This document shows, piece after piece, positions 18,331 to 64,000 of a DNA stretch of 64,000 nt. Every line of letters starts with the position of its first letter. Position 1 is the first letter of the stretch. This DNA comes from a virus. Taxonomy: Duplodnaviria > Caudoviricetes. The position numbers were made by a program, and so were the translations under genes. The DNA lies in IMG/VR virus record IMGVR_UViG_3300033069_001745, positions 1 to 64,000 of that record; one strand, 5' to 3'. The notes under the pieces were generated by a model that did no database searches, was not told the origin of the DNA, and worked only from the letters and a program-made list of their open reading frames with translations.

Positions 18331-18348
18331 TGGGGATAGGTGATCACG

Positions 18349-24300: not shown

Positions 24301-27300
24301 TGCCTGGAGATTCGCCTCCGGTCGTCCCAGCGAGTGAACCGGGTCAAGTTCGAGCTGGCCCACTTTCCTCAGCGGGCGTGGTGTGAAGCATGGTCGGACG
24401 CCACCGAGAGCTGGCGCCCAGTGTGGACCTCCAACATCGTCGACTCGATCCCGTCCAACCTCGTGAACCGAGTCGATTCCATCGACCACCTGCACCCTCA
24501 GCATTCGCTATCGGGACACTGGGTGGAGTACGACCTCACGATCGATCCCACGGTGGCCTCTCGCTGGCGTCTGCGGTTGCAACGCCTGGCTACCGGGACT
24601 CCGCCCCTCAATGCGGCGGGCAAAGAGTCGGACTACAGCCTGGGCGTGCGAGGGTTCGACCTGAGCTACCACATCGCTGACCGAATCGACATCCCCCGCT
24701 TGCCGGTGGGGGAGCCGGTGGGTACTTCGGTCGACCCCCTCGGCAGTCGCATGCTCTACTCGGTGCGCGAGCGCCTGGCCCCGTTGGCAATCGACGGCGA
24801 CTCTTCAACGGCGTGGCTCTCCGAGCCCCAACCCACGGCACGAGCAGTCGTCAACTTCTATGCCGATGTGCGCACCTCGGGTGGTGACGGTCAGATCATC
24901 GACCGTTGGTACCTCGACCCGATCAAGCCGGGGCCAACCCTCAACCTCTACTACAGCAACGACACCGCCCTGGGCCGCCACCCAGCCGTTGACACGCCGC
25001 TCGGGATCGAGAAGGTCGAGGCCGAAGGGCTGTACACCGCCATTGACGACGGCATCAGCTTCGACGGCGCTGCCCCCGCCTACTTCCTCATCGATAATTC
25101 GCTGATCCAGTTTGATCACACGCGTGATTGGTGGATCGGGGTCGAGGTGCAGCCGCGATTCTCCGGTGACAACGCCGACAGCGCGATCTTCAGCTTCGAC
25201 CAGTTCACCTGCCAGTTCTCCGATCAGTCGATCGTCTTTGCCACCCCGGGCGGCGGTGACACCGTGCTCCCGCTGTCGTGGTCCGATGGGCAGGTGATTC
25301 GCCTCGTCGTGGAGTACCGAGCGAGCCAGCGCACCATCTCGATCTCCGCCCAGGTGACCTACGGCGATATCGAGTCGATCACCCAAACACTCCCGATGAC
25401 GCTCGTCGGATCGATCCACACTCTGCGCATCGGGGTCGACCCCGGTCTCTCCATCCCGCCGGATTTTGTCATCCGCAAGCTGGTCATCAACCAAAGCGGA
25501 TTGGAAGACCTAAATGATTTCCTGAGCGATCCTGACGGGTACGTCGTCAAGGCCGTGCATGCGGTGGTGGACACCGGGCGCACCAACGGCGCCATCCTCC
25601 GGATGCACCGGAACTTCGTCGACCCGGAGAGCAACCCCTTCGGGTTGGTCGGCGGTCCAGGAAACGGGTTCGCCGCACTGCGCTGGACCCCGATCCCCCG
25701 AGACTACCGCCTTCAGAAGGGGTGGCTCGACATCCCGCCGATCAAGGCGCGGTTCTGGAAGTTCGAGTTCAGCCAGCTCGTCATTGAGCCCATCGAGGTG
25801 CGCATGCCCCTGCACCGGGCGGTGCAGGTGTTCCCTCAGGTGGCGCAGAGCACCCACGTGGTGACTCGCGAAGACCCGACGATCGACATCCCGGCCTTTG
25901 ATGAGTTCTCTCGGCAGTGGCGCACCTACAGCGACACGCCTTCGCTCACCCCCGAGCCCGACCAGACGAAGATCATGCCGACGGCGTTGCTCTATTCCTC
26001 GGACCCCAGTGGCGTGCAGCGCTTGCGCTCGCAGTCGTGGTCACACGGGTTCACCGATTGGCACGTCGGCTCGGATCGTCCCCGGTTCCTCCAGGAGGGC
26101 GTGCACACTTACGACACGATCATCTACGAGCAGGCGGAGAAGATCGGCTTCTTCGTCGGGCTCAAGGAGATTCGAGCGGCCCGTACCTCGCACCGCGGGG
26201 TGGACAACCCGATGGTGATCAACGAGCGCCTCCACGACGCCACCCGGCTGGCGGTCAACCAATGGTCGCACACCGCAGGCAACCTGTGGTCGGGCTCTTC
26301 GATCACCAACCCGGCGGTTGTCGAGTCGGCCATCATCCCGACTCGTACCCGCATCAGCGCCTTGCAGTTCGCTGCCCAGATTTCCGACCCGGTGCAGCTC
26401 CTGCCCGATGACCAGTTCCGCTCGCCCCGTCTGACGGACTACAACTGGACCGATCCTCAGGGCTGGCAGCAGATCGGGGATGCCTGGATCGAGTACCGCA
26501 CCTACGACCAGCAGGTGCTCATCCGCCGGGCATATCTCCCGCCGGTCACGGCGGACCCCCTCGATCAAGGGATCGTTCGTGACATTGTGCACCCGGTGTT
26601 CTCCACCCGTGGCGCCCCCGAGAGCATCCTCCCCAGTGACTTTCCGGGAACCGTTTTCTACAGCATGGATTTCGATGCGCCAAACGGTACCGACCCGGCG
26701 ACGCTCCCACATGCTAATTTCAAGTCGTCTTCTACTGGTGGTTATCTTACCATCCAGAATAATCGCCTCAAGAGCGTCTACGGAACGGCGGCAGCGTACG
26801 GTGCTGTCAATCAATTCGCAACTACGCAACTACCTACCAAGGATATCTCCGCAGTCTTTGACGTAACGGTTGGCGATACCTCTCGTGAACATTTTGTGTT
26901 GCTCCTATGGAATCACGATTTCGTTGCGGCTGGGTGGGTATTACGAATCGAACCATCAAGCAACCAAATAAGACTGTTAACTCAGTCCGGCGGTGTTATG
27001 ACGGCTGTCGCTGTCGCTCCGGTCACGATGGTGTCTGGAGAGACGTGGCGGATTCGCTTGGAGCACCGGAACAACCAAGTCAAGGTTCGTACCTGGACCG
27101 GGCTCATCGAACCGACGGCCTGGAATATCTCCTACAACTCCTCTTGGGTTCCCGCCACGACCTACGGCGTGCAGTTCTTCTTCTACGGAGGTAACGCTGC
27201 CCGGGGCGCCACGGAGAACCCCGTGTACATCGACAACCTCGTGCTCTCGGACAAGTGGTGGGACGGAACCCCGCCGATCCCGGTGGTCGACGCCGGGGGT

Positions 27301-28221
27301 ATCCAGAGCCCACTGGTGAAGACCAGCCCCAACGGCCTCATCCACGCCGCGGCACGCATCACCGCCATCACCGATCTCACCAACCAGCTCTGGGTGCAGA
27401 TCGTGGACGAGGACGACGAGGTGCTCGTCGAGGAACCCATCGTGGCCAAGCGGGGCGACACCGTGGAGTGGACCGCGAGCTACTTCTTGGGCGATTACGG
27501 GAAAGAATCTTTCTACCTGCCCGAGTTTGGGTACCGCACCATCGTTGACGAGCCAGTGCGCCTGGTGTTCGCCCGGGAAGACGAGCTGGTCGATCAGGGA
27601 ACCAACCCTGAGCCAGTGGTGCCGGGCTACCTGTTCCGGGTGCGCCTCATCCAGAAGGGTCCGAGCACCGACACCTGGATGGTGGACCGCCTCTCGCTCT
27701 TCGACGAGTCGTTGGTATGGGAGTTCTCCGTGGACGGCGGGAACAACTACATCCCCGCCTACACGATCAAGAACAACCCCCACGGGCTCTTGACCTTCCC
27801 TCGGCCAGGTAACGCCCTACGCTGGCGTCTGACCGCCTACCGGGCCAACCTGCATCTCTCGGCGGTGCAGATCCGGCCCCAGTACGTCAACCACCCCACG
27901 CACCGGTTCTCCAACCCTCAGCGGGGACCCAACGTGTCGGTCTACGACCAGTGGCTCCCGATCCAGGAGGACCCGGAGTTCAAGCGGTGGTCGCGTCCGG
28001 TACCCCAGTATTGGTGGCTCGAAGGTTCGAGCTTCAACACCAACGTCCCGGTCGATGGCTTCACCTACTCGAACGAGTATTCGGACTCCTACGAGCGCGA
28101 GGTGATCGACAACATTCGCGTCACCTTCAGCGACTCCACGAGCCGTGAGGTGCACTACATCCGCCTGATTGAAACGGCGCTGGGTGTACCGGTGGACACC
28201 GCAACGATCACGTTGCTCTAA
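18349..28221 (+). CDS. Giant (~3290 aa) baseplate/receptor-binding protein: beta-helix, 5 PKD, lipase, second beta-helix, CBM35-like, then structural tail domains
   Basis: GTG 18349 preceded by AGGTGAT (track start 18340 is in the same frame); repeated FTDTS..SPTSW.W.FG.G PKD motifs; GFSQGG nucleophile elbow; YQAENA...GYTGTGY CBM35-like. Confidence 0.85.
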   Translation: MAVDFRALYLQKYPAGGTTLYVSASGNDSNPGTQASPKRQIQSAINAMPSGGGIIYVGDGNYDGFSFYARNFSANSWCHVISQNYLGAKIGGGIGFTQSSFAGIFGLEVNPNNQGVNCVSIQTTTHNIAVWRCWTRNGQVGIGAMGNQGDSSAACNNVYICYNIVSDNAKATVDPFGSSGISFYDPWQKAIFPASTGPDQYGYSNYIVGNLVVWNYQNGEYVDGNGIIIDDGNHTQNYGGPSGNVYTERTLVMGNLTVKNGGRGIQIFETRNVDVAFNTSAYNSWRKNDSAFYGEIGYNAAWGGRMLHNLSYPDANNAYWFSYYNADDIENTGNVFLRGPQYNANGNYPAIDRTADGLNYFKNNAPTVSSEWSGMTFTQADQWRPDGGSGGINKVTLSQTLYDAFSPWPDMFGDLRPARTTGWATGFSESTGGTGTNPGPVAAFTVSNLTPGTGEAVQFTDTSTGSPTSWNWNFGNGASSTSQSPSYTFTTAGTYTVVLTATNTNGSSQSTQSVVVSETTQGPGLVTHPALGKPGHLLTSTQVSTTNSGHPIYRISYQMTSITGTIVSASGLVAVPSGTAPSDGRRVILAGHGATGTNDAAAPSYSPNTGAFSGSVGDVDAWLNAGFIVAQADYEGLTYGGDSSLPHPYMVGVSAGRSLLDCGIACSGLTTVRRSAASVGFSQGGHASLFAGELADTYAVTDSGSVEFNVPAFPSGTPINVTTLGVSASSGANQQTAIQNALNNAASGSIIQFPAGTYLHSGVLQINKPLTIFTTAGAILRGTDPLNMAIQVNADDVRIEGFTVEGVGTSRESNDDTRGGIAILGRARTVIKGCTIKKSSAAGLYIDGASDYYIINNSVQNTLSDSIHNTGSSHHGYVLNNTVTGSGDDNIAIVSYGGQDCNNITVFGNTVTGGNARGLSVVGGRDCILQGNTVTSSSAAGIYIASEPSYSTEGVSNIIIRDNALSGCNTDVARNHGGIFLWGGRPGKPVNNVHIHNNTISGTIAGGAHMVVQGDQVTATTMTNNATSGAKQHRYIEAAAGQWSAAGNTHNGSPVADVGTAIPPANASTPTPIFTQFCAVGFDPVVTSHYVNLIYQAQGSPQYLASIIYGSWIENSSLTRTVVLSSGASSNLPNLLTWDFNTTASNINFGNGSFIANPTTAGGGWGAAMTKNTPGQRKARPSRVYAPNGGLGGGSTWLSAAQTAGTNASLVTGSGGHEIIMVSDAIAWVTSTLNSQGGGGGPQVPAANFSWTPTSPQQNESVQFTDTSTNAPTSWLWQFPEPGQGEAQWATSTQRNPTRTYTTTGTKTVILTATNTAGSSTSTKTLTVVAPGPPVANFTTTPTVGTVGQSVQFTDTSSGSPTSRSWEFGDGTTSTAQNPTKTYSAAGTYNVSLTAANGQGSHTVSRTFTVNQPSVVDVYQAENAQIVSSMYPGDPEGMHVVSEAPGYTGTGYMGYWGQPNEILRFSIPGATAGQYSVKWRYQKCDFDTPTSLQLWVNGAQVSVVQFSRTGTDWLGNTWIESPALTLNFQSGTNTVELRHVDQDWLYVDLDYMSVQSLTPPGNPPVASFTRTPTGAVETGVNISFTDTSTGSPTSWNWDFGDGTTATSQNPTKTYTGAGSYTITLQAVNQYGTASTTSTITVTSPPPVPQPPVAAFLASATQVTVGQVVTFTDQSTNAPNSWHWNFGDGVTTTAHNPTHAWTAPGTYSVTLIAANTDGSDDVSRQIIVIAPPVLEPGDPIPINRFEFTVMPKRGLSLAEEVNLRRVLSLFKPAATRLHVQPLGDAAIDDVPVIRVAADSEWWEVVGSVVTRPGTEWAYADPGDVTTPREQPRPPFASYQGEHWSYAGDVANIVAYADDVGQLRQNYFQRVAYADGTFFDFRPDLGCRWPQDAITELLASDGALVAHPLAIEHTSGKERWVDRVGPVRTRTSISTSGILPLYFNGVSIEDLAQRADSIFSVHRRQAGVPQRFWSTTERPKHDPIIECLEIRLRSSQRVNRVKFELAHFPQRAWCEAWSDATESWRPVWTSNIVDSIPSNLVNRVDSIDHLHPQHSLSGHWVEYDLTIDPTVASRWRLRLQRLATGTPPLNAAGKESDYSLGVRGFDLSYHIADRIDIPRLPVGEPVGTSVDPLGSRMLYSVRERLAPLAIDGDSSTAWLSEPQPTARAVVNFYADVRTSGGDGQIIDRWYLDPIKPGPTLNLYYSNDTALGRHPAVDTPLGIEKVEAEGLYTAIDDGISFDGAAPAYFLIDNSLIQFDHTRDWWIGVEVQPRFSGDNADSAIFSFDQFTCQFSDQSIVFATPGGGDTVLPLSWSDGQVIRLVVEYRASQRTISISAQVTYGDIESITQTLPMTLVGSIHTLRIGVDPGLSIPPDFVIRKLVINQSGLEDLNDFLSDPDGYVVKAVHAVVDTGRTNGAILRMHRNFVDPESNPFGLVGGPGNGFAALRWTPIPRDYRLQKGWLDIPPIKARFWKFEFSQLVIEPIEVRMPLHRAVQVFPQVAQSTHVVTREDPTIDIPAFDEFSRQWRTYSDTPSLTPEPDQTKIMPTALLYSSDPSGVQRLRSQSWSHGFTDWHVGSDRPRFLQEGVHTYDTIIYEQAEKIGFFVGLKEIRAARTSHRGVDNPMVINERLHDATRLAVNQWSHTAGNLWSGSSITNPAVVESAIIPTRTRISALQFAAQISDPVQLLPDDQFRSPRLTDYNWTDPQGWQQIGDAWIEYRTYDQQVLIRRAYLPPVTADPLDQGIVRDIVHPVFSTRGAPESILPSDFPGTVFYSMDFDAPNGTDPATLPHANFKSSSTGGYLTIQNNRLKSVYGTAAAYGAVNQFATTQLPTKDISAVFDVTVGDTSREHFVLLLWNHDFVAAGWVLRIEPSSNQIRLLTQSGGVMTAVAVAPVTMVSGETWRIRLEHRNNQVKVRTWTGLIEPTAWNISYNSSWVPATTYGVQFFFYGGNAARGATENPVYIDNLVLSDKWWDGTPPIPVVDAGGIQSPLVKTSPNGLIHAAARITAITDLTNQLWVQIVDEDDEVLVEEPIVAKRGDTVEWTASYFLGDYGKESFYLPEFGYRTIVDEPVRLVFAREDELVDQGTNPEPVVPGYLFRVRLIQKGPSTDTWMVDRLSLFDESLVWEFSVDGGNNYIPAYTIKNNPHGLLTFPRPGNALRWRLTAYRANLHLSAVQIRPQYVNHPTHRFSNPQRGPNVSVYDQWLPIQEDPEFKRWSRPVPQYWWLEGSSFNTNVPVDGFTYSNEYSDSYEREVIDNIRVTFSDSTSREVHYIRLIETALGVPVDTATITLL

Positions 28222-46294: not shown

Positions 46295-47206
46295 ATGAGC
46301 GCACCATCCTTCCGCCGTGGTGGCGATGCCGCCGAGGAAGCCAACAAGTTCACTTCGTTCAACCGGGAGAAATTCTTCTCGCTCGCTGACGGTGATAGCT
46401 GCTACGTGCGGTTCGTCACGGACGAGAACGAGTGGATCACGGTGGACCAGTACGCCTTCTTGCCCACCAAGCCAGCTCCGGCTGACTTCTCGGGTACGTG
46501 GCCCAAGAGCATGCCCGCTGTGTCGCGCTCCGACCCGGCCTTCGCCAACGTGTACAGCAACGACTACGTTGCGGAGTTCATGCGTGACGAGAAGGGCGTG
46601 CCCTACAAGACCACTGCCCGTTCCTGGGCTTATGCCTGCATGCGTGAGCAGGTCATCGAGAACGGTCGTGTCTCGGGGTACCGGGACAAGACGCGTGAGG
46701 TGAGCTTCGAGCGCGACGGCAAGACGGTCACCGAGACGATCAAGGACATCGTCATCATCAACATGGGGTGGAAGAATTTCTTTTCTCCCCTCAAGGGATT
46801 CGCTCGCGCCTACGGCACCGTTGTGGATCGCGACTACTGGATCGAGCGCCGGGGATCGGGAGTATCGACCACATACTCGATCGTGCCCATGGACGCCATC
46901 CCGGGCTACGACCTGCGCGACCCCGAAGTCGCCAAGCTCTACCCCATCGGTCAGCCGCTGGAGGATCTGGTGATCTCCCGCTCCAACGACGAGTATTACG
47001 CCCGTTTCTTCGATCATCGGGTGTCCGCTCCGGCGCAGAACAACTCGAACGGTGCTGCTCCGCAGGCTGCCCCGGCACCGACTCAGGCCGGACCTCCGCA
47101 GGCGTTGCCCCAGCAACCGACGAACGACATCGACCAGAGCCGTCTTCGGGCGCTCCAGGATCGAGTCATGGGGTACGCTCCGCCCGCTGCGCCCCAGGGC
47201 GCCTAG
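46295..47206 (+). CDS. Single-stranded DNA-binding protein (gp32-like), putative
   Basis: FFSLADGDSCYVRF; DYWIERRGSGVSTTYSI; low-complexity C-terminus; adjacent to the polymerase. Confidence 0.7.
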   Translation: MSAPSFRRGGDAAEEANKFTSFNREKFFSLADGDSCYVRFVTDENEWITVDQYAFLPTKPAPADFSGTWPKSMPAVSRSDPAFANVYSNDYVAEFMRDEKGVPYKTTARSWAYACMREQVIENGRVSGYRDKTREVSFERDGKTVTETIKDIVIINMGWKNFFSPLKGFARAYGTVVDRDYWIERRGSGVSTTYSIVPMDAIPGYDLRDPEVAKLYPIGQPLEDLVISRSNDEYYARFFDHRVSAPAQNNSNGAAPQAAPAPTQAGPPQALPQQPTNDIDQSRLRALQDRVMGYAPPAAPQGA

Positions 47207-47307
47207 ACCCACCGAGGGCCAAGGGGGTTCCCAGGAGGGCGGTGGGGCTGTTACCTCCGCTCTCCTGGGATCACTTCGTTCGTTCGACGCGCCTGGAAGA
47301 GGTTTCG

Positions 47308-50300
47308 GTGGAGTATCAGCGGTGGATCTTGTCGCTCATGCCGTTGGGCGGCTCGACGTTCTCGATGAACGGACATACCTATGCATCCCCGAGCCTCTTC
47401 GAGGACGACCACGGGATGCGGACGCTGGCCCTGCGCCGGGAGCCCGCCGGGTTCCTCATTCCGGTGCATCTCTGGGTACGGGCGTTCACCGACACCCCGA
47501 CCATCATCGCCTTCACCGACGACACGGCGTGGTATGGCATCACAGTGCAACAGTGGCTCGACGAGCGCACCGAGAACCGGGTGGATGCCACCTACGCCAT
47601 TGCCCCGGAGAAACTCCGAAGGTTCGATTACTTGCCGTCTTTCAAGGATTTCGTGCTTCTTGGGAAAGAGTCGATTGCTCCGAAATCTTCGTTCGTCCAT
47701 CTCCATTCACATAGTGAATTCTCAGCGTTAGACGGGTACTCGCATGTTTCGGAAATGGTTGCGGAAGCTGTACGCAATAATCAACCTGCCCTGGCGCTGA
47801 CCGATCACGGTGTCTGTTCGGGACATCCCGCCTTACAGATCGAGGCGAAGAAGGCCGGAATCAAGCCTGTCTATGGCATCGAGAGTTATTTTGTTGACGA
47901 TCGATTCTTCCGACCGATGCGGAAACCGGCCAAGACGCAGTTCAAGGACGAGGACGAGTATCAGCGTCTGATTCGGCAGTGGGAAGAGGAGCAGAAGCGG
48001 GGGAAGGACTACTGGCACCTCGTGCTGTGGGCCCAGACCGAGGAGGGCTTACGAAACCTCTGGGCGGCCAGCTCCGAGGCCCAGCGGGAGGGCAAGTACC
48101 GGGGCAAACCCCAGATGGATTGGAGCACCCTGGAGCGCCACGCCGAGGGGCTCATGGTGTCTACCGCGTGCTTGCGGGGCCCGCTGTCGGCCGCCTTGCT
48201 CAACGAGAACCACGAGCTGGCCAACCAGCGCCTGGGGCGCTTGATCGACATCTTCGGGGGCCGAGTGCACCTAGAGATCCATACCAACCAGATGCCCGAG
48301 CAGAAGCTCCTGAACGAGCGCCTGATCACGATGGCCCGAGACTTCTCGCTACCCGTGGTGGCGGTGAGCGACTCGCACTATCCCACCGCCGAGCACAAGC
48401 TGTGCCACAAGGTGTGGATCGCTGTGCAGACCGACTCCGATCTGCAAGACGATGCCGACCTGTTCGCCGGGGACGAGGACTACCACTTGCTCTCCGAGCA
48501 GGAAGCTCGACACTCGTTGAGCTACCTCCCGCCCGCCGTGGTGGACGAGGCCATCAGCAACACCTCGTTGGTGGCCGAGCAGTGTGACGCCACGATTCGA
48601 TCCCGAGGCTCGGCTCCCGTGTTCTCCAAGCGCCCGACGAGGGAGGAGTCTCAGCGCCGGGACGTGGAGCGCCTCACCGAGATTTGCCTGAACAACTGGC
48701 ACAAGACGGTGGGCAAGAAGTTCCCCCAGGAGATCTATGAAGAGCGGTTTGCTCGTGAAATGAAGCTCCTGGTTAATAAGGATTTCTGTGGATACTTCCT
48801 TATGGTTTCGAATTACTGCCGCCATGCACGGGACAACGGGGTATTAGTCGGCCCCGGAAGGGGCAGTGGTGGAGGCTGTTTGGTCGCTTATTTAGCGAAC
48901 ATAACTGAGATAGACCCGGTTGAAGCCGAACTCATCTTCGAGAGATTCCTCACCTCGGGGCGTAAGGGGCTTCCTGATTTTGACGTCGACTTCCCATCTT
49001 CCATGCGCGAATGGTTGACCAACTTCATTATCGACTACCACGGCGAGGATCACGTGGTGCGGGTGGGGACACACACCTACCTCCGCAACAAGGGAGCGGT
49101 GCGCTCGCTGGCCAAGGTGCTCGGGTCGACGATCCAGATTCACTTCCCGGACATTGAGATGATCTGTGCCATCATCGACGAGGCCGAAGCCGACTCGGCG
49201 GGCTTGGGGCGGGCCTGGGATGAAGTGTGGACAGCGTTCCCCCAGGAGTACGAGCAGTGGTCGAGCAAGTATCCACTCTTGTTCGAGATGGCGGAGAAGA
49301 TCGTGGGGCGCCTCTCCACCTACGGCCAGCACCCGGCGGGCGTGGTGATCGCCACCGATGCCCCGCTCAAGGGTGAAGTGCCGATGCGCTACACCCCGAG
49401 CGGTCACGCGGTGTCCGAGTGGAACATGGAAGCGCTGGAGTCGATCGGGTTGGTGAAGTTCGACCTCCTGACCATCCGTAACCTCGACACGCTCCAGGAG
49501 GGCGTGGACATCGACTCCCGCCTGGCCCAAGAGGCCGCCTCGTTCGGGGCTCGGGTGGCCGAGGAGACCGGGGAGCGCATCGACTTCTACTCCTGGACCG
49601 CCGAGTACGACGACCCCGAGGTATGGGACGCCATCTGTGCCGGTGACACACTGGGGATGTTCCAGATCGAGACCTACGCCGGTACCGCCATGTGTCGGCG
49701 CTACAAGCCCCGGTCGATCCAGGAGCTGGCCGACGTGATCACGCTCATCCGCCCCGGCCCCATGCGATCCGGCCTGACCGACACCTTCCTGCGCCGTCGT
49801 CACGGTGAGGAGGAGGTGACCTTCCCTCACCCACTCCTGGAACAGGTGCTCTCGAAGAGATACGGCACGATTATTTACCAGGAGGACATCCTCAGCGTCT
49901 GCATGATTCTCGCTAAATACGACGAGAACGAAGCGGACGAGGTTCGAAAGATTCTCGGGAAGAAGAAGGTCGAGGAAGCGAAAGAAGCCGGTTTAAAGTT
50001 CGTCCATCGCTGTGAGGAGAACGGTGTTCCTCGATCTGTTTCCGAACCCCTTTGGGAGCAGATGGAGGAGTTCGCCAAGTATAGCTTCGGTAATGCGCAT
50101 GCATTTGGATATGCCACTATAGCCTTCTGGTGCGTCTCAGGTGCAACTAAGATATATGATTGGGACAATAAAGAGTATATTAGTGTCTCCAAGGCATTCA
50201 AGCGTGGTGTTGACCATGTAGCTTGCTTCGATGAGGAAACTGGCAAGACCATCCGGGGTAAAGTTAAGAAGGTTATACGAACCAATGATCTTCACTCTAA

Positions 50301-51255
50301 GACTATGGGGTGGGTTGTCAGAACCAAGTCTAATAAGAGGCTTGAGTGTAGTATAGATCATAGGATTCTTACGCCAGACGGTTACAAGAAGGTTTCTGAA
50401 TTACTTCCTGGAGATATGGTTGCTAGCGAGAAGCGCGTCTCTGTGATGACTGACGAGAGGCGCCGGGCTATCGCTGAGGGGGTGCGTCGTCACTGGGAGG
50501 GGATGAGCCAGGATGATAAGAGATTAAGAATTGAGCGCACTAAGGAATCGCTGCCTACTGAATTACGTTCAACCGCTGCGAAACTTGGATGGTCTCGCAT
50601 GGATAGCGATGAACGTGAAAGTCGCGTTAAGAAATTGGTAGAGTCTGCGACAGGAGGTACTTGGGGTGCTTGTCGCAGGGGCGTGGTTGAAAAGTGTGGT
50701 CACCGGTACGCGTCCAGTAACGAGAGATTTATATGTGAATGGTTCAATCTACATGGGATAGATCATGAGTCTCAGGTTTGGGTTGGATCAGGGTTTGCTG
50801 ATTGGCGTGTGAAGGGTGTATTCATAGAGTTTGATGGATTGGATAGACATGAGTCATACTTCGAGAATAAGTTTGGTGATGATCCGTATATTGTAATCAA
50901 GGATATCAATTACGTAGACCATGACTTACACTTCTTTCTTGAAGAGGATATTATGCGTTCTGGTGGGTTTGTCACGTTTGAGCCAATTGTCAGTATCACT
51001 CCATCTAAACCGATTATTATGTATGACATAGTCATGGAGCAGGCTCCACATAATTTCTTGGCGGATGGAATAGTGGTACACAACTGCGCGTGGCTAAAGG
51101 TCCGGAAGCCGCTGGCCTTCCTCACGGCGGTGCTCTCGACGGCTGACGCCAAGCGCATCCCGGACTTCATCGAGGAGGCGCGCCAGCGAGGGATCACGCC
51201 ACTTCCGCCCGACATCAACACCTCGGATCGACGGTTCTCGGTGGTGCGCCGGTGA
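47308..51255 (+). CDS. dnaE: DNA polymerase III alpha (DnaE), N-terminal gene: PHP and catalytic core, intein-containing
   Basis: VHLHSHSEFSALDG; LTDHG; GPGRGSGGG; LPDFDVDF; HPAGVVI; KFDLL; start re-called at GTG 47308. Confidence 0.92.
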   Translation: MEYQRWILSLMPLGGSTFSMNGHTYASPSLFEDDHGMRTLALRREPAGFLIPVHLWVRAFTDTPTIIAFTDDTAWYGITVQQWLDERTENRVDATYAIAPEKLRRFDYLPSFKDFVLLGKESIAPKSSFVHLHSHSEFSALDGYSHVSEMVAEAVRNNQPALALTDHGVCSGHPALQIEAKKAGIKPVYGIESYFVDDRFFRPMRKPAKTQFKDEDEYQRLIRQWEEEQKRGKDYWHLVLWAQTEEGLRNLWAASSEAQREGKYRGKPQMDWSTLERHAEGLMVSTACLRGPLSAALLNENHELANQRLGRLIDIFGGRVHLEIHTNQMPEQKLLNERLITMARDFSLPVVAVSDSHYPTAEHKLCHKVWIAVQTDSDLQDDADLFAGDEDYHLLSEQEARHSLSYLPPAVVDEAISNTSLVAEQCDATIRSRGSAPVFSKRPTREESQRRDVERLTEICLNNWHKTVGKKFPQEIYEERFAREMKLLVNKDFCGYFLMVSNYCRHARDNGVLVGPGRGSGGGCLVAYLANITEIDPVEAELIFERFLTSGRKGLPDFDVDFPSSMREWLTNFIIDYHGEDHVVRVGTHTYLRNKGAVRSLAKVLGSTIQIHFPDIEMICAIIDEAEADSAGLGRAWDEVWTAFPQEYEQWSSKYPLLFEMAEKIVGRLSTYGQHPAGVVIATDAPLKGEVPMRYTPSGHAVSEWNMEALESIGLVKFDLLTIRNLDTLQEGVDIDSRLAQEAASFGARVAEETGERIDFYSWTAEYDDPEVWDAICAGDTLGMFQIETYAGTAMCRRYKPRSIQELADVITLIRPGPMRSGLTDTFLRRRHGEEEVTFPHPLLEQVLSKRYGTIIYQEDILSVCMILAKYDENEADEVRKILGKKKVEEAKEAGLKFVHRCEENGVPRSVSEPLWEQMEEFAKYSFGNAHAFGYATIAFWCVSGATKIYDWDNKEYISVSKAFKRGVDHVACFDEETGKTIRGKVKKVIRTNDLHSKTMGWVVRTKSNKRLECSIDHRILTPDGYKKVSELLPGDMVASEKRVSVMTDERRRAIAEGVRRHWEGMSQDDKRLRIERTKESLPTELRSTAAKLGWSRMDSDERESRVKKLVESATGGTWGACRRGVVEKCGHRYASSNERFICEWFNLHGIDHESQVWVGSGFADWRVKGVFIEFDGLDRHESYFENKFGDDPYIVIKDINYVDHDLHFFLEEDIMRSGGFVTFEPIVSITPSKPIIMYDIVMEQAPHNFLADGIVVHNCAWLKVRKPLAFLTAVLSTADAKRIPDFIEEARQRGITPLPPDINTSDRRFSVVRR
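50131..51084 (+). mobile_element. Intein (318 aa) with NUMOD3-like repeats and a DUF559/Vsr-like endonuclease
   Basis: Starts CVSGATKI; block B SIDHRILT; ends NFLADGIVVHN followed by Cys; SSNERFICEWF...FIEFDG; low GC. Confidence 0.9.
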
Positions 51256-52082
51256 CCGCCCTGGAAGAGCCCGAGCTGCGCTACACCGTGCGCTACGGCA
51301 TCACCGACATCGCTGGGGTGGGTGACAGCGCCTACGAGGCCATCTTGGCTGGGCGGCCCTACACCAGCTTCACCGACTTCCTGGAGCGCCGGGGCACCAA
51401 GTGCAACTCGGCCGACATCGATCGCTTGGTGCGCATCGGGGCGTTCGACTCACTGCACCCTGATCGAGCCAAGCTCATCGCGGAGTGGGAGTGGGTCAAG
51501 CGTCAGTCGGAGAATCTCTGCCGCTGGCGCAACGAGAGCCACCTGGGGGTCAAGGGGTTGCCGTGCACCCGAGACTGGTCGGACGTGCCGGTGGAGCTGA
51601 AGCGTGACGGGACCCCGAAGAAGAACCAGAAGGGTCCCCCGAGCAAGTGCACCCGGGCGTGCTGGAAGTATGAGCCAATCGAGCCACCCGACCTGGGCAG
51701 TGTGGCACCATTGACCGAGAGCGATGTGCGGGGGATCGAGCGGGAGATGCTGGGTGTGTACCTATCATCCACCCCGTTCGATGACCTCGACCCCAAGCTG
51801 GTGGAGGAGTGTCACCGAAGCGCTGACCTCGATGCGGCCAGTGCTGGCCAGCGGGTGATGGTGTGCGTGCAGATCGAGTCGTGCTCTACGCGCAACGATC
51901 GCAACGGCAACCCGATGGGTTTCCTCGGGCTCCTGACTCATGACGGCACCAAGCTCCGGGCGGTGTGCTTCTACCGCAAGTGGGCCCAGATCAGGATCGA
52001 TGTCTACGTGGAGCGCCTGATGTTCGGGGTGCTCTCCAAGACCGATCGGGGCTGGGTGGTCGAGGGGCTCATGCCCGCCTAG
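51252..52082 (+). CDS. dnaE: DnaE C-terminal part (HhH and OB fold) as a separate gene
   Basis: VRYGITDIAGVG; RIGAFDSL; EREMLGVYLSSTP; NGNPMGFL; GTGA overlap. Confidence 0.85.
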   Translation: MTALEEPELRYTVRYGITDIAGVGDSAYEAILAGRPYTSFTDFLERRGTKCNSADIDRLVRIGAFDSLHPDRAKLIAEWEWVKRQSENLCRWRNESHLGVKGLPCTRDWSDVPVELKRDGTPKKNQKGPPSKCTRACWKYEPIEPPDLGSVAPLTESDVRGIEREMLGVYLSSTPFDDLDPKLVEECHRSADLDAASAGQRVMVCVQIESCSTRNDRNGNPMGFLGLLTHDGTKLRAVCFYRKWAQIRIDVYVERLMFGVLSKTDRGWVVEGLMPA

Positions 52083-55755: not shown

Positions 55756-56487
55756 GTGAGTCGGTTACCTTCCGCTGGTGCCCTGTCTTCGGGCTTGACT
55801 GTCGCTGTGCTGCGAGAGCTATTCCGCAACCTCGCACTATTTCGATCTACGTATGAAGACCACGGCGTTGATACCGTGAAGTACGGAAAGCTTGAGATCA
55901 CAATCTGGGATATGGAGTACCTTTACTCTATCCTCGATCAGCTCCCATCACGTCAGCACCAAGCTATTGAGTTCTGTTTGGTACGCCAATTCAAGGAACG
56001 TGAAGTTGCCTTGATGATGGGAGTATCAGAGACAAATCCGGTTGCGATGTATGCCACCTCGGGTCTGGAGAATATTCTCCAGATGATCAATAAGGGGCAA
56101 CTCTTATACTTCCGGAGTGACGATTTCCAGCCCCCAGAGGTAGTCCGGGATCGCCTCCCGACGGGGCTGCTCGGGGTCTGGGACCCGGGATCGTGCCTCT
56201 CGCCCTGGGGTTTGTGGTCGCGTCTCTACTTCCAACAGGAGAGGTTCCAGCATGGCCAGGATGCGCTACGGTGTGAATCGTCAGCTCGAAGACCAGGCGG
56301 ACGAGATCCTGCGCTTGAGCCTGAAGTCGGCCAAGACGCACAGCGAGAAGAAGGATGTCCTGACCCCGTGGAAGGCGCAGGATCGCATCTCGCGAGAGGT
56401 CTACGTGGCGTCTGGGACCCCAGATCCAGCTATTCGCCGTGGGGTATTTGGTCGGGTATACAATCCGGTGCACCGGCATCTCAATAG
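55756..56487 (+). CDS. Sigma-70 region-4-like HTH protein with C-terminal extension overlapping the next gene
   Basis: LDQLPSRQHQAIEFCLVRQFKEREVALMMGVS. Confidence 0.7.
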   Translation: MSRLPSAGALSSGLTVAVLRELFRNLALFRSTYEDHGVDTVKYGKLEITIWDMEYLYSILDQLPSRQHQAIEFCLVRQFKEREVALMMGVSETNPVAMYATSGLENILQMINKGQLLYFRSDDFQPPEVVRDRLPTGLLGVWDPGSCLSPWGLWSRLYFQQERFQHGQDALRCESSARRPGGRDPALEPEVGQDAQREEGCPDPVEGAGSHLARGLRGVWDPRSSYSPWGIWSGIQSGAPASQ

Positions 56488-59361: not shown

Positions 59362-61413
59362 ATGCTCCCCGACCCAAAGATCCTGCTGCCTGACGACCCG
59401 CCGGACATCATCGAATTCGCTACTTCACCGAGATATCTCGGGCGCAAGATTTACCCACGTCAAGCCACGCTTCTGAAGGCGATATTCCTTCAGAGCGAAT
59501 TGTTCACTTCATACGACATGGCGGTGCTCGAAGAGTGGGCCACGATGGAGTTCCGGCTTCCACCGAAGGAAGGTTGGGACGTCGAGAAGCCCTACCGCTT
59601 CGTCGGGATGGCGGGTATCCAACCCGACATCTTGGAGCGCGTCGACATCAACCGGGCCGACGGGCGCAAGTGGTTCCGTGAGGTTCTGGCGGTGATCGGG
59701 CGTCGCGGCGGGAAGGGTTACATCGGGGCAATCTCCGGGGCCTACGTGATGTGGCACTATCTCTGCCACGTTGACCCGCAGGAGCACTATTCGATCGCCA
59801 AGGACAAGCGCTTGGCCGCCCTGGTGTTCGCCGGGAAGAAGCTCCAGGCGGTGCAGAACCAATGGCGTGACCTCGTGAACGTGATCATCGCCGCCCCGTG
59901 CTTCCAGCCCTTCATCTCCCAGTCGCTCGGGGAGAGCCTCACCGTGCACTCGAAGGTATCCCTCGGGCGCCGGGAAGAGTTGGCCGCCCAGGGTGTGCAT
60001 ACCTCGATGGACCTAGCCAGCTTCGAGGTGCTCCCCAAAGAAGCGACAACCATGGCTGGCCGCGGCCCTGCGGCCTATTTACTTTTCTTCGATGAAATGG
60101 CTCACGTAATTGCTACGGGTGCCTCTCGCTCGGCCGAAGAGCTATACACCACCGCAACTCCGGCACTAGATCAGTTCGGGGTAGACGGCTTTATCTACGC
60201 CGGTTCTTCACCCTGGCAGATGATCGGGCAGTTCTATGATCTGTGCCAGGACGCTTTGCAGGTTGAGTTGGATACGTTGGAGCCGGTATACCCGGAGAAA
60301 TTACTCGTCCAGCTTACGTCTTGGGACATTTACAAAGATTATGAGCGGGCACACAAGATCATGCGAGTCCCGGGGACCGACAAGGCGTACACATTCCTGG
60401 CGCGACACGACCCGTCTCCGAAGACCAACATCTCGTTGGCCCATCACTATGTGTTCAATGCCGAGTTGGAGCCGGTGCGGGCCAAGGCGTTCGACCCCAT
60501 CGATCGCCCCATCCAGGCGTACGACGACCAGATGAAGCGGCTGGAGCGGGCGAACCCCGATACCTTCGCAGTGGAGCGCCGGTCACGCTGGGCATCGGTC
60601 CTCGACACCTACCTCAACGCCGACCTCGTGGATCGGATGTTCGAGCCCTACGACGGGTTCAACCTGCGGATGCAGGACAAGGGCGTCTTGGCCAACACCT
60701 ACGTGGCCCACGGGGACCCGAGCTACTCCAACGCCAACTTCGGCTGGGCCATCGCCCACCGAGTGGGCCCGGACGCCGATGGGCTCTACCACGTGGTGTT
60801 CGACAAAGTGCACTTCTGGGCCCCGTGGAGCTTCGACGATGGTCGGGTCGACTACATCCAGATCGAGAAAGAGATCGTGACAGACCTGATCAACTTCGTT
60901 CCGTCCATAGTGACGTTCGACCAGTTCTCCTCGGGTCCGATCATGGCCCAGATACGTCAAGAGGTACACAAGCGCAACTTGCCAAAGCGTGTAACGATTG
61001 ATGAGCGCACGGCAACTGCCCCGCAGAACTGGGCGGTGGCGGAGTGCTTTAAGACTGCACTAGGTATGAATTTGATCCACTCTCCATACCAGGAGCAATT
61101 GGAATTGGAGTGCAAATTCCTCCAACGGAAATCGAATCGGGTTGATCACCCAACGATGGGGCCAGTGCAAACGAAAGACGTCTTCGACGCGGTCTCCAAC
61201 TGCGTGTTCACCCTGATCGGACAGCAGATGGAGGCGTTCATGGAGGGGTTCCGGGGCGTGGGCATCCATGCGGTGGCTCAGTCGCTTGATGGTTCGTCGG
61301 CCATGATGGATCACGACCGCGAGATACATCAGAGGCTGTCGTCGTCGCTGAGGCGCACCCAAGGGTTGTACGGCGGGGCCAGCCCAACCCGCCGGAGCGG
61401 GTGGAGGCCATGA
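59362..61413 (+). CDS. terL: Terminase large subunit
   Basis: IGRRGGKG Walker A; LFFDEMAH Walker B; AHGDPS and TFDQF nuclease motifs; TKDVFDAV. Confidence 0.88.
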   Translation: MLPDPKILLPDDPPDIIEFATSPRYLGRKIYPRQATLLKAIFLQSELFTSYDMAVLEEWATMEFRLPPKEGWDVEKPYRFVGMAGIQPDILERVDINRADGRKWFREVLAVIGRRGGKGYIGAISGAYVMWHYLCHVDPQEHYSIAKDKRLAALVFAGKKLQAVQNQWRDLVNVIIAAPCFQPFISQSLGESLTVHSKVSLGRREELAAQGVHTSMDLASFEVLPKEATTMAGRGPAAYLLFFDEMAHVIATGASRSAEELYTTATPALDQFGVDGFIYAGSSPWQMIGQFYDLCQDALQVELDTLEPVYPEKLLVQLTSWDIYKDYERAHKIMRVPGTDKAYTFLARHDPSPKTNISLAHHYVFNAELEPVRAKAFDPIDRPIQAYDDQMKRLERANPDTFAVERRSRWASVLDTYLNADLVDRMFEPYDGFNLRMQDKGVLANTYVAHGDPSYSNANFGWAIAHRVGPDADGLYHVVFDKVHFWAPWSFDDGRVDYIQIEKEIVTDLINFVPSIVTFDQFSSGPIMAQIRQEVHKRNLPKRVTIDERTATAPQNWAVAECFKTALGMNLIHSPYQEQLELECKFLQRKSNRVDHPTMGPVQTKDVFDAVSNCVFTLIGQQMEAFMEGFRGVGIHAVAQSLDGSSAMMDHDREIHQRLSSSLRRTQGLYGGASPTRRSGWRP

Positions 61414-61676
61414 GCAGCAGCAACGGTGGCAGCGAGATGTCGGTGGTGCAGTCGTGGCACCACATCGACCATGCGCTCTTGGAAGAGGGCCCGCTGGCCA
61501 ATTGCGTGCTGGAGATCCCGGCAACCCTGCCCTTGCATCTAGTGGTCTCGTGGCGGGGCCAGGAGAGCAACAAGCTGAGCGACTCGATCTACCGCCGGGT
61601 GGATGTGGGTAAGTATGCGTCGCGCAACGACCATGGCCAGGTGCGCTACCAGTATCAGCAGGACGTACCTCGCTGA
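61410..61676 (+). CDS. Hypothetical protein
   Basis: GGAGG RBS; 88 aa. Confidence 0.55.
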   Translation: MSSSNGGSEMSVVQSWHHIDHALLEEGPLANCVLEIPATLPLHLVVSWRGQESNKLSDSIYRRVDVGKYASRNDHGQVRYQYQQDVPR

Positions 61677-61728
61677 CCTGGCGCTTCCCCAAGCAAGCTT
61701 GCTAGAGTCGCCTAAGTAAGCTTGGTGT

Positions 61729-62076
61729 GTGGAGGATGCAGTGCCCCCGGGACAGACCGTACGACCTCGGCCGAAGTGTGAACGATGCGGTCACCCGTTG
61801 TCGTTTCACCCCACCCAGGGCCCGGACGCGAGCTGTCAGGCCGTCGGGTGCTCGTGTGCCTCCTACCAGGGCTGGACCTGGACGTGGGCCAAGACAGCGC
61901 CCCTCGACGAGGCGCTGACCCGACTGGGGCTACTCCGCCTCAACGAACTGGAGCAAGTTGCCCCGAAGCGGTTCCTGCACGAGGTGCCTACCCGGGAGCT
62001 GCACACCGAGTCCAAGGCCGAGACGATGGAGTGGCGCATCGACCGCCAGTGGTTGGATCGTCAGGCCAGGCCGTGA
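61729..62076 (+). CDS. Hypothetical Cys/His-rich protein
   Basis: CERCGH...H...C..GCSC. Confidence 0.6.
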   Translation: MEDAVPPGQTVRPRPKCERCGHPLSFHPTQGPDASCQAVGCSCASYQGWTWTWAKTAPLDEALTRLGLLRLNELEQVAPKRFLHEVPTRELHTESKAETMEWRIDRQWLDRQARP

Positions 62077-62636
62077 GTGACGTTCCTCTCGAACCCACTT
62101 ACGCCTGGATCGCTCTGTGCACCACGGGAGACAACCCCCGGCTCGACCATGTACTCGAAGTGGCCGCCGTGCTCACCGGTCCCGATCTGGTCGCTATCAA
62201 GTCGCTCGCCCTGGTGGTGAACCCCGAGCTTGGTCGACACGGAGCGCACTGGGAGGATCGCTTGGGCCCCGAGCGCAAGCACCGCTTCTCACGCTCGGGG
62301 CTGTTGCGCGAGGTGTCTTACGGTTCCTCGCCCGCCTACATCGATGAGGCGTTCGCTTCCCTCCTGGTTGGCGGGAAATTTATTTGTGCTGGGTACGAGC
62401 CCCAGATGATCTACGCCTTCGCTCGGGAGCAGATGTCTGGGCTGGCGAGCAAGCTTCAGCACCGCTTCTGCGATCTCTCGTCCATGCGGGTGTTCATCGG
62501 TGATCTCGTGCAACGAGAGGACCTTCTGGCGGACTTCGGGGAACGTCCGGGTCGAGCTATGCTCGCTGTCCAGGATGCATTGAGCGAAGCTCGCATCTAT
62601 GCGAGCTATCTTGCTGCGGTGCCCTTGGGGGAATGA
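62073..62636 (+). CDS. Oligoribonuclease (Orn/DEDDh)-fold protein with substituted catalytic residues
   Basis: WIALCTTG..P..D.VLEVAAVLT..DL; SGLL..V; M..L...LQHRFCDLSS, colinear with Orn as recalled. Confidence 0.75.
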   Translation: MSDVPLEPTYAWIALCTTGDNPRLDHVLEVAAVLTGPDLVAIKSLALVVNPELGRHGAHWEDRLGPERKHRFSRSGLLREVSYGSSPAYIDEAFASLLVGGKFICAGYEPQMIYAFAREQMSGLASKLQHRFCDLSSMRVFIGDLVQREDLLADFGERPGRAMLAVQDALSEARIYASYLAAVPLGE

Positions 62637-62765
62637 GCTACCAAGGTACTCTGGGACAGTTCATGAGATTGCACGAGATATCTATCTCGCCAATCCACCA
62701 CTGCACTCTTTGCCCGAGGTATTGTCTCGCCCGACAAGGTTGAGGGGTGAAGGAGGACCAGCGTC

Positions 62766-63077
62766 GTGTTTGACGTTGAGGCACAGCAGTCATGGTTCCA
62801 TCAGAGCGCGTGTCGGGAGGTGGAAACGGACGTGTTCTTCCCGACATCAACGGGGCCGATGTCGAGCAGACGAGCCAAGGCGATCTGTGCTACGTGCGGG
62901 GTGCGAGTCGAGTGCCTGGTCTTCGCCCTGCGCCACCGCGAGGTGGAAGGCATCTGGGGTGGATTGACCGAGCGGGAGCGACGTTCGGTCATGCGCCGGG
63001 CAGGTGGCGCTTCGGTGGTGCGTCAAGAGGATCGTCACGTGGTCATCGAGCGCATCCGAATGATTGCCAGGGACTAG
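62766..63077 (+). CDS. whiB: WhiB-family transcriptional regulator
   Basis: SAC...D.FFP...AKAICATC.VR.EC..FAL....GIWGGLTERER. Confidence 0.92.
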   Translation: MFDVEAQQSWFHQSACREVETDVFFPTSTGPMSSRRAKAICATCGVRVECLVFALRHREVEGIWGGLTERERRSVMRRAGGASVVRQEDRHVVIERIRMIARD

Positions 63078-63649
63078 TACCCCAGGAGCTGCCGTGCCTT
63101 GGGATCTCGGTAGCGGCTCGGCACGGGCCCGCTCTGGTCCTGGTACTTGGACCGGAGTCGGGCATCGCCGTAGGCAACGACTGCCGGGCCGGTGAGCTGG
63201 ATGAAGGCGATCTGTGCAATCGACATCCCGGCATAGAGCCGGATCGGCCGGGGAGCACAGTTGTACATCTCCAAGGTGATCCGGCCGCTGAAACCGGGGT
63301 CGATGAAGCCTGCGGTGGCGTGCACCAGGAGCCCGAGCCGGGCCAGGCTGCTCTTGCCCTCCAGGCGGGCCGCGATGGTGTCACCGACAGTGATCTTCTC
63401 GGCAGTGGTCCCGAGCACGAAGCGGCCCGGGGCAATCACCATCACGTCAGCGTCATAAGCCACGTACTCCTCGATGCCGGGTACCCCCTCGATGGGGTCG
63501 ACTGGCTCGGTGAAGCGCGTGTCGTACTCCATGAAGCTGCCCCCGAGGGTCAGATCAATCGAAGCAGGCTGGACCCGGGTGATGTCGAGCGGATCGATAT
63601 AGATGCTGCCCATATTGATCTTGTTGAGTATTTCATTGTCGTGGAGCAT
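63074..63649 (-). CDS. dcd: dCTP deaminase
   Basis: VQPASIDLTL; EGKSSLARLGL.VH.TAGFIDPGFSG.ITLE; IAQIAF; SKYQ. Confidence 0.92.
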   Translation of the reverse strand: MLHDNEILNKINMGSIYIDPLDITRVQPASIDLTLGGSFMEYDTRFTEPVDPIEGVPGIEEYVAYDADVMVIAPGRFVLGTTAEKITVGDTIAARLEGKSSLARLGLLVHATAGFIDPGFSGRITLEMYNCAPRPIRLYAGMSIAQIAFIQLTGPAVVAYGDARLRSKYQDQSGPVPSRYRDPKARQLLGY

Positions 63650-63720
63650 TGCCGCATGTTACCGGATGTTGTGAGCCATGCTGGGGTAACCTGGCGAGAC
63701 CGCCGAGGGAGGGGTTCAGC

Positions 63721-64000
63721 ATGGAAGATGACGAGATCAAGGCACTGATCGCCGCGGCTATCCGGGACCACGAAACCCGTTTCTCGCACCCGGTGATCAT
63801 GACCAATGTCGACCCCAGCGGGCGCTTCCGGGTCTCGGTCGATTACACCGACGTGACCCCCGCCCCGACACCTGATCCCGGCCCCGATCCCGAGCCCACT
63901 CCTGATCCCACTCCTGATCCCGAGCCCGAGCCAACGCCCGATCCGGAACCCACGCCCGATCCGACTCCTGATCCTATCCCGGAACCCGTTCCGGCGATCA
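63721..64000 (+). CDS. 5' part of a protein with Pro-Thr-Pro-Asp/Glu linker repeats, truncated by the window end
   Basis: MEDDEIKAL...PTPDPGPDPEPTPDPTPDPEPEPTPDP; GGAGG upstream. Confidence 0.65.
   Translation, partial: MEDDEIKALIAAAIRDHETRFSHPVIMTNVDPSGRFRVSVDYTDVTPAPTPDPGPDPEPTPDPTPDPEPEPTPDPEPTPDPTPDPIPEPVPAI

Follow-up and report, generated by a model that had tools for sequence, protein, structure and literature searches.

RNA decay and c-di-GMP turnover both end with one essential enzyme, Orn (oligoribonuclease). What, then, is the task of a phage gene whose product is recognisably an Orn but has lost every catalytic residue? Such a gene, hereafter pseudo-Orn, lies at positions 62,073-62,636 (+ strand) of a 64-kb stretch of DNA ("the window"), which makes up the first 64 kb of an IMG/VR virus record that is 81 kb long and has an estimated completeness of 57%. 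Within the window, this large myovirus of actinobacteria carries tail sheath and baseplate genes, a WhiB gene, a dCTP deaminase gene and, at 46,768-51,255, a gene for a DnaE-type (Pol III alpha-like) polymerase with a PHP domain and an intein. The GTG start of pseudo-Orn shares 4 nt (GTGA) with the TGA stop of the preceding 115-aa ORF, and its GC content by codon position (0.69/0.45/0.71) is coding-like and matches that of the neighbouring genes. The encoded protein, labelled P0001, has 187 residues and forms a single domain in the AlphaFold (AF2) model, which contains no extra domain. Metagenomes of wastewater, groundwater and rivers, produced by several studies, contain near-identical copies; the SNPs seen in other metagenomes (62,099 T>G and 62,507 C>A) are both synonymous, a number too small to be weighed.

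P0001 is a genuine Orn-family protein with the Orn-type DnaQ fold across its full length. The NCBIfam oligoribonuclease model NF003765 matched residues 11-180 (E = 2.7e-6) and gave E = 5e-20 and 2e-15 for the first two homologues, with all three proteins scoring under the curated equivalog cut-off of 106 bits (27 bits for P0001). Neither Pfam RNase_T nor the PHROGs produced a match to P0001, and a phmmer search of the PDB returned weak matches only, yet these were colinear and full-length (2gbz, E = 0.013, residues 10-181 against 11-182). Searched exhaustively with HMMER, 1.84 billion representatives yielded 83 relatives of P0001, and a profile of 85 relatives matched Orn/REXO2 at E = 1e-51 as against 1e-11 for DnaQ/PolC. 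The AF2 model is highly confident (pLDDT 95.4), and its best 40 Foldseek matches in the PDB are all Orn/REXO2 (TM 0.78-0.84), headed by Mycobacterium smegmatis Orn (TM 0.82). Structural alignment with VIA-align gave Z = 22.9 and an rmsd of 2.0 over 174 residues for Vibrio cholerae Orn, and placed Orn structures in general (Z 20-23) well above DinG, RNase T and epsilon (Z 15-16.5). The neighbours of P0001 in the ESM Atlas are viral clusters of exonuclease and oligoribonuclease. Given the NF003765 match, the family profile, the AF2 model and the structure matches, the homology to Orn is more than chance. With the structures of actinobacterial Orn, P0001 shares only about 20% identity. An earlier, sequence-only reading had described the gene as an intact ORF whose product is colinear with Orn and keeps its fold, and had proposed a comparison with Orn by AlphaFold and Foldseek; the present results bear that description out.

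The loss of the active site, which that reading had also noticed, is equally plain. The five DEDDh columns were read from 89 family members aligned with MAFFT, of which 72 carry D-E-D-H-D; in P0001 the pentad D12, E14, D112, H158 and D163 is replaced in full, by A14, C16, I113, G160 and A165. The motifs WIALCTTG, GYEPQMIY and GRAMLAV, through which the replacements were first seen, are all present in the protein. On the + strand, the Exo I remnant WIALCTTG (62,106-62,129) has A14 and C16 in place of the Asp and Glu that are invariant in the 72 intact relatives. In the Exo II remnant GYEPQMI (62,391-62,411, +) GSxV has become GYxP, the phosphate-cap Ser is E109 and the catalytic Asp is I113. 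The Exo III remnant GRAMLAVQD (62,550-62,576, +) holds G160 and A165, together with R161, A162, Q167 and D168, which are invariant in the clade described below.

The residues that position the substrate are changed as well. Orn is obligately dimeric, and its active site takes Y129 and R130 from the partner subunit (PMC6613908, PMC9676404). Its 5'-phosphate cap (S108, Y129, R130 and S135) corresponds to E109, H130, R131 and S136 in P0001, its L18 wedge to D20, and its 3'-OH cap and base pocket (H66, M62/T65 and V59/W61) to F72, R71 and R68, so that two pocket positions are now Arg. When compared with the cap residues defined in PMC6613908 and PMC9676404, the segment H130-R131...S136 (62,460-62,480, +) is cap-like in P0001 and not in the ten other members of its clade. 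Cap positions vary across the clade, and nine of its eleven proteins have Asp in place of the cap Tyr. The pocket His at the H66 site is found in 72/72 intact relatives as against 5/11 clade members. The alignment shows no counterpart of the Orn dimer's salt bridge R130-E139 (PMC9676404), position 131 being variable and position 140 being V, R, L, T or H.

Together with ten other phage proteins, all from wastewater and other metagenomes, P0001 forms a clade marked by the motifs PRLDH, NPxLGRHG and GYxP. The other members are 42-53% identical to P0001, and the mean identities within the clade are 48-62%. A complete DEDDh pentad is found in none of the 11, as against 72/89 in the wider family, and the pattern of loss differs among lineages. 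The five columns read DEDGD in L005, SEDHD in L006 and P0088, DEAHD in P0089, DKTHD in P0005, EKHHD in P0087, AEHHN in P0003, HVHHD in P0006 and P0090, QITGD in P0004 and ACIGA in P0001; several members retain four of the five residues and others none. In a quick ML tree the clade and two further degenerate sequences form one group (SH-aLRT = 85) beside the intact relatives, with P0001 as the most divergent member on the longest branch (0.85). Because every ancestral pentad residue survives in some lineage, the ancestor of the clade probably still carried D-E-D-H-D, and the residues were probably lost several times independently. Such differing patterns are expected if catalysis could already be spared at the origin of the clade.

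The nearest intact relative, P0008, shares 43% identity with P0001 and is detected by Pfam RNase_T. In its phage, a related one (L011), it follows a terminase, a small gene and a Zn/HTH gene of about 110 aa, which is the arrangement seen around pseudo-Orn. The presence of intact P0008 at the syntenic locus shows that the pseudo-enzyme arose in place from a phage Orn, a putatively active, phage-borne diribonuclease at this same locus. Among GenBank phages, megablast and tblastn revealed no close relative of the gene or of the locus, and pattern scans of IMG/VR and of GTDB genomes found no relatives, and so pointed to no prophage copy and no host. Nor does the 81-kb record, itself only about 57% complete, contain a second intact Orn/RNase_T gene.

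A gene that has lost all its catalytic residues could simply be decaying towards loss under neutral evolution, and the long branch of P0001 and its loss of Pfam detection are in line with such a fate. However, codon models (IQ-TREE, GY+F3X4) gave omega = 0.106 with six sequences and 0.101 with eight, and fixing omega at 1 was strongly disfavoured (2ΔlnL of about 349). Pairwise NG86 estimates range from 0.13 to 0.4, with dS saturated between most pairs, so omega is known only roughly in absolute terms; the clade is also small, with 11 clusters and DNA for eight of them. Between the same genome pairs, the dN of pseudo-Orn to other phages (0.43-0.63) is comparable to that of dCTP deaminase (0.38-0.50) and WhiB (0.46-0.74); the omega estimates for TerL and the dCTP deaminase are unreliable owing to saturated trees. 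Moreover, the ORF is intact in 11 lineages despite saturated synonymous sites, and P0001 retains 41 of the 45 positions that are invariant in the other ten members, its deviations being I/V, A/S, V/L and one gap. Together with the confident model and the new conserved motifs, these data reject neutral decay, which the sequence-only reading had named (as dN/dS near 1) among the outcomes that would speak against it; as an explanation of the gene it is largely refuted and keeps hardly any probability. Pseudo-Orn is under clear purifying selection, and since this holds despite the lost catalytic residues, the gene would now have some non-enzymatic job. The suggestion that selection favours something other than cleavage is supported. 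The reading had also proposed to see whether homologues share the substitutions under purifying selection; the degeneracy is shared by the homologues, with exact losses that vary by lineage.

Which parts of the protein are under selection can be seen by separating the old substrate pocket from the rest. Following PMC6613908 and PMC9676404, we defined 16 dinucleotide-contact positions (the DEDDh residues, M15, L18, W61/V58, V59, M62, H66, S108, F111, Y129, R130 and S135). Among the intact relatives these are strongly conserved, with a mean entropy of 0.84 bits as against 2.53 bits for the rest of the protein, whereas in the pseudo-Orn clade the relation is inverted (1.90 bits in the pocket and 0.98 bits elsewhere; permutation p < 5e-5, Mann-Whitney p = 4.5e-5). 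Eleven of the 25 most variable positions of the clade are pocket positions. The median pairwise dN is 1.07 for pocket codons and 0.45 for the others at a median dS of about 1.1, indicating near-neutral evolution of the old pocket. Pairwise dN was used here because a pocket-only ML omega of 0.21, obtained from 15 codons with branch lengths re-fitted on those codons, is not comparable.

Outside the pocket, by contrast, about 25 residues do not vary within the clade yet are rare in intact relatives. They include R23, L24, H26, N50, L53-G-R-H-G57, R79, Y108, P110, R148, D150, R158, Q167, Y179 and P184. Of the 11 members, 10-11 have R23, L24 and H26, as against fewer than 20% of intact relatives. 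H56 is replaced, by Gly or Arg, in two members. Two of the motifs form clade-specific loops on the + strand: PRLDH (P22-H26; 62,136-62,150) lies just past the wedge position, and NPxLGRHG (N50-G57; 62,220-62,243) contains a three-residue insertion relative to REXO2/Orn when the family profile is aligned to REXO2. The string LGRHG..W was also considered as the RHG motif of histidine phosphatases and dropped, the fold being different and the His missing in 2/11. Along the chain the new loops lie immediately beside the segments of the old wedge, Exo II and Exo III, and so they probably ring the former cleft. The variable old pocket and the constrained remainder imply that selection acts on the fold and on the new loop motifs and not on the old pocket; old constraints have been lost and new ones gained, which points to a new function and neither to decay nor to the simple retention of ligand binding. 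The earlier proposal that a fold kept without its metal ligands binds the ligands of Orn uncut is not upheld by this distribution.

The neighbourhood of the gene offers some hints on what the new function could be. The large terminase gene (59,362-61,413, +; PHROG 2, E = 2.5e-10) heads a conserved run consisting of TerL, a gene of about 90 aa, a Zn/HTH gene and the Orn-like gene. The enzyme shares 31-33% identity with the terminases of cluster C mycobacteriophages and Stormageddonvirus, and no exonuclease or Orn-like gene is annotated after the terminase in two of the phages with related terminases, Gordonia phage RedWattleHog and Mycobacterium phage NuevoMundo. The Zn/HTH gene (115 aa; 61,729-62,076, +) has homologues directly upstream of the Orn-like gene in L002, L003, L009, L011 and L016, and nearly every contig with enough upstream sequence has a gene of this kind (about 110 aa) ahead of the Orn-like gene, often overlapping it or closely spaced. 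In its product a Cys/His cluster (CxxC...SFH...C..GCxC) at the N terminus is followed by a weakly Xis/MerR-like C-terminal half; the fold matches are weak (pLDDT 68, best Z 5.7) and include excisionase, MerR and small-terminase DNA-binding domains, which we treat as a lead only. Downstream, a WhiB-like transcription factor (62,766-63,077, +; Pfam Whib, E = 2.5e-22) is the usual neighbour in phages of the clade. It adjoins pseudo-Orn in L003 and L016, where 8-15 nt separate the two genes, and in L009, where they overlap by 4 nt; in L002 it is nearby. The link of pseudo-Orn to both proteins is one of gene order, and a complex prediction for two copies of pseudo-Orn and one Zn/HTH protein (score 0.04, mark 0.32) speaks neither for nor against binding.

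With some reserve, we think it probable that pseudo-Orn is a conserved phage pseudo-nuclease that works as a binding or adaptor module. In one small clade the DEDDh site and the dinucleotide pocket of the phage Orn at this locus were freed from constraint, and the protein acquired its invariant loop motifs (PRLDH, NPxLGRHG, GYxP, R148/D150, R158, Q167 and Y179). The protein would act by binding and not by cutting, and would do so through the new loops, rich in Arg, His and Tyr, rather than through the ancestral pocket. The conserved order of the Zn/HTH, pseudo-Orn and WhiB genes leads us to favour, at modest confidence, a small cassette for the control of host or phage transcription, in which pseudo-Orn would be an adaptor or regulator. 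A protein partner and a phosphate-bearing ligand or nucleic-acid end seem about equally plausible. The function of P0001 may also differ from that of its clade relatives, because it has the longest branch and is the only member with the cap-like H130-R131...S136.

Signal sponges are known among phage-encoded proteins, and the sequence-only reading had proposed that pseudo-Orn could be one of them: a dead Orn that keeps its pocket and soaks up pGpG, pApA or the cyclic-oligonucleotide signals of immunity, in the service of anti-defence or c-di-GMP control. The confident fold, the purifying selection and, in P0001 itself, the cap-like H130, R131 and S136 with Arg at positions 68 and 71 would all suit such a protein. 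However, a sponge for a common signal should conserve its pocket, which in this clade comprises the most variable positions and changes at nearly the synonymous rate; the cap Tyr has mostly become Asp, the cap Ser of P0001 is Glu, and the L18 wedge and H66 are lost. No known sponge family appears among the Pfam, PHROG, PDB and BFVD matches, although a new sponge fold could escape such lists, and the gene follows the terminase and adjoins regulators instead of lying in an obvious early anti-defence block. The Orn pocket, moreover, suits linear 5'-phosphorylated 2-mers and not rings (PMC6613908). We consider a sponge unlikely on these grounds. The same reading had offered, as a second possibility, the poisoning of host Orn, in which dead heterodimers with the host's essential enzyme would raise nanoRNA and pGpG. 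The retained Orn fold and the obligate dimer with its borrowed Y129 and R130 (PMC6613908, PMC9676404) give this idea a basis, but the low identity to actinobacterial Orn and the interface salt bridge that has no counterpart make such poisoning, as judged from the sequences, highly improbable.

We also weighed two further explanations. Pseudo-Orn could serve the DnaE-type replicase of the phage itself as an epsilon-like, non-catalytic accessory subunit, as the polymerase encoded in the window and the annotation of intact Gordonia and Rhodococcus phage relatives as 'DnaQ-like DNA polymerase III subunit' might suggest. We find this distinctly unlikely: the family profile and the structural comparison both prefer Orn (Z = 22.9) to epsilon (2gui, Z = 15.1), there is no C-terminal alpha-binding tail, as the chain of P0001 stops at residue 187, directly behind the Exo III helix, and the gene lies 11 kb from dnaE within the conserved terminase-to-WhiB run. 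Alternatively, the protein could still be a hydrolase that uses other residues, such as R55, H56 and Y108 of the new motifs, since invariant Arg, His and Tyr have appeared beside the old active-site segments. Yet H56 is not retained throughout, no acidic metal ligands are conserved, and we are aware of no metal-free catalysis by this fold. The coexistence of members with four of the old residues and members with none also fits poorly with one shared chemistry, and we hold continued catalysis to be very improbable.

The reading as a binding or adaptor module remains the one we prefer. In a bolder reading the dead Orn would be a host-takeover or counter-defence factor that either binds a nucleotide signal or nanoRNA through its remodelled Arg-rich face, with the cap-like H-R...S of P0001, or blocks a host nanoRNase or an Orn-dependent step, with the effect that c-di-GMP- or dinucleotide-dependent transcription would be reprogrammed or actinobacterial cyclic-nucleotide immunity blunted. 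We regard this as unlikely. If the partner of pseudo-Orn were a nucleotide signal or a host factor of RNA decay or transcription, the protein would represent a new kind of takeover or counter-defence protein of actinobacterial phages; otherwise it is a well-documented example of a phage pseudo-enzyme, from a clade that is small and uncultured. Pseudo-enzymes are not rare in large phages. The clade is an unusually clear case of an enzyme becoming something else, with an intact relative at the locus, lineage-specific losses, a near-neutral pocket and new invariant motifs, and we found no conserved, catalytically inactive Orn in the papers searched, which dealt with Orn, nanoRNases, diDNases or pseudonucleases.

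Compared with known systems, P0001 is closest in fold to Orn/REXO2 (NF003765; PDB 6N6A, 7WIK, 9F7M and 6N6I), with which it shares the full-length architecture (Z 20-23, TM of about 0.8), colinear motifs and a length of about 185 aa. The wider phage family of P0001 retains the DEDDh residues, the phosphate cap and the V/M/H pocket of the actinobacterial type (PMC9676404). P0001, however, differs in its five replaced catalytic residues, in the absence of the wedge Leu, H66 and the cap Ser, and in the new LGRHG loop insertion and GYxP motif, and the corresponding pocket positions are unconstrained across its clade. In sequence, its nearest relatives (30-43% identity) are the intact phage Orn-like exonucleases, namely P0008 and genes of Gordonia, Rhodococcus and Microbacterium phages annotated as 'exonuclease', 'DnaQ-like' or 'orn', including the exonuclease of Microbacterium phage FuzzBuster (BFVD). 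The motifs W..[DE]R[LM] and HRA are common to both groups, but the intact proteins have D-E-D-H-D, the cap residues and a Pfam RNase_T match, and are devoid of LGRHG and GYxP.

The sponges Tad1, Tad2 and Acb2 share with P0001 only the proposed logic, in which a small phage protein would bind a nucleotide and leave it undegraded; no similarity in sequence or fold to P0001 was found, and the candidate pocket of P0001 is not conserved among its homologues. DEDD pseudo-exonucleases are already known in eukaryotes: Exuperantia of Drosophila and PML-1's PXL domain have a DEDD fold that is devoid of catalytic residues and has been kept as a non-catalytic binding module (PMC13659232). P0001 resembles them in being a DEDD fold without catalytic residues that is under selection, and they set a precedent for reading it as a binding module. 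However, Exuperantia and PML-PXL belong to unrelated eukaryotic lineages, have a two-domain EXO-SAM organisation and bind RNA, whereas P0001 is a single-domain, Orn-type phage protein.

Degenerate versions of the DEDDh set, the catalytic pentad of Orn, are also found outside the LGRHG clade, the group of 11 metagenomic phage proteins to which pseudo-Orn (62073-62636, +), the Orn homologue of the window, belongs. Within the wider Orn-like family of phages, another six proteins (P0009, P0015, P0017, P0036, P0046 and P0058) carry such sets, for instance DQAYD, KATLG and SASYE, and hence the loss of catalysis is recurrent in this family.

In nearly all contigs that extend far enough upstream, and in intact and dead lineages alike, the Orn-like gene is directly preceded by a conserved gene for a Zn/HTH protein of about 110 aa (61729-62076, +), the stop of which overlaps the start of pseudo-Orn. 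This protein has a Cys/His cluster, CxxC...SFH...C..GCxC, and its C-terminal half shows a weak likeness to the DNA-binding domains of Xis, MerR and small terminase proteins. HNH endonuclease genes are inserted next to pseudo-Orn in two contigs of clade phages: in L006 (62-544) the HNH gene occupies the slot directly upstream, which holds the Zn/HTH gene in other contigs, and in L017 (817-1311) the slot directly downstream, where WhiB is usually found.

Several independent studies of wastewater, groundwater and rivers yielded metagenomic contigs with 99-100% identity to the region 59362-63700, indicating a widespread phage with an almost clonal population. In one run, the dCTP deaminase gene showed a single SNP that changes the protein (63327 A>T, Leu to Gln), together with a 1-nt insertion and a 1-nt deletion that compensate each other. 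Directly after this gene, and on the opposite strand to it, an ORF (63649-63999, +) becomes a Pro/Asp/Glu/Thr-rich repeat (PDPEPTPDPTPDP...) and runs past the window end.

The WhiB cassette is preceded, at a distance of a few kb, by a gene (55756-56487, +) for a 243-aa protein that matches sigma-70 region 4 (Pfam E 1e-5) and may be a phage sigma-like factor. The product of the 3293-aa ORF at 18340-28221 (+) combines two beta-helix regions with five PKD domains and a CBM35-like module, and is probably a giant depolymerase of the tail fibre or baseplate. The gene at 46768-51255 (+) encodes a DnaE-type Pol III alpha that possesses PHP, NTPase and finger domains and is interrupted close to its C-terminal part by an intein-like insert; the HHH_6 domain, normally next in Pol III alpha, is found in the following ORF (51252-52082, +).
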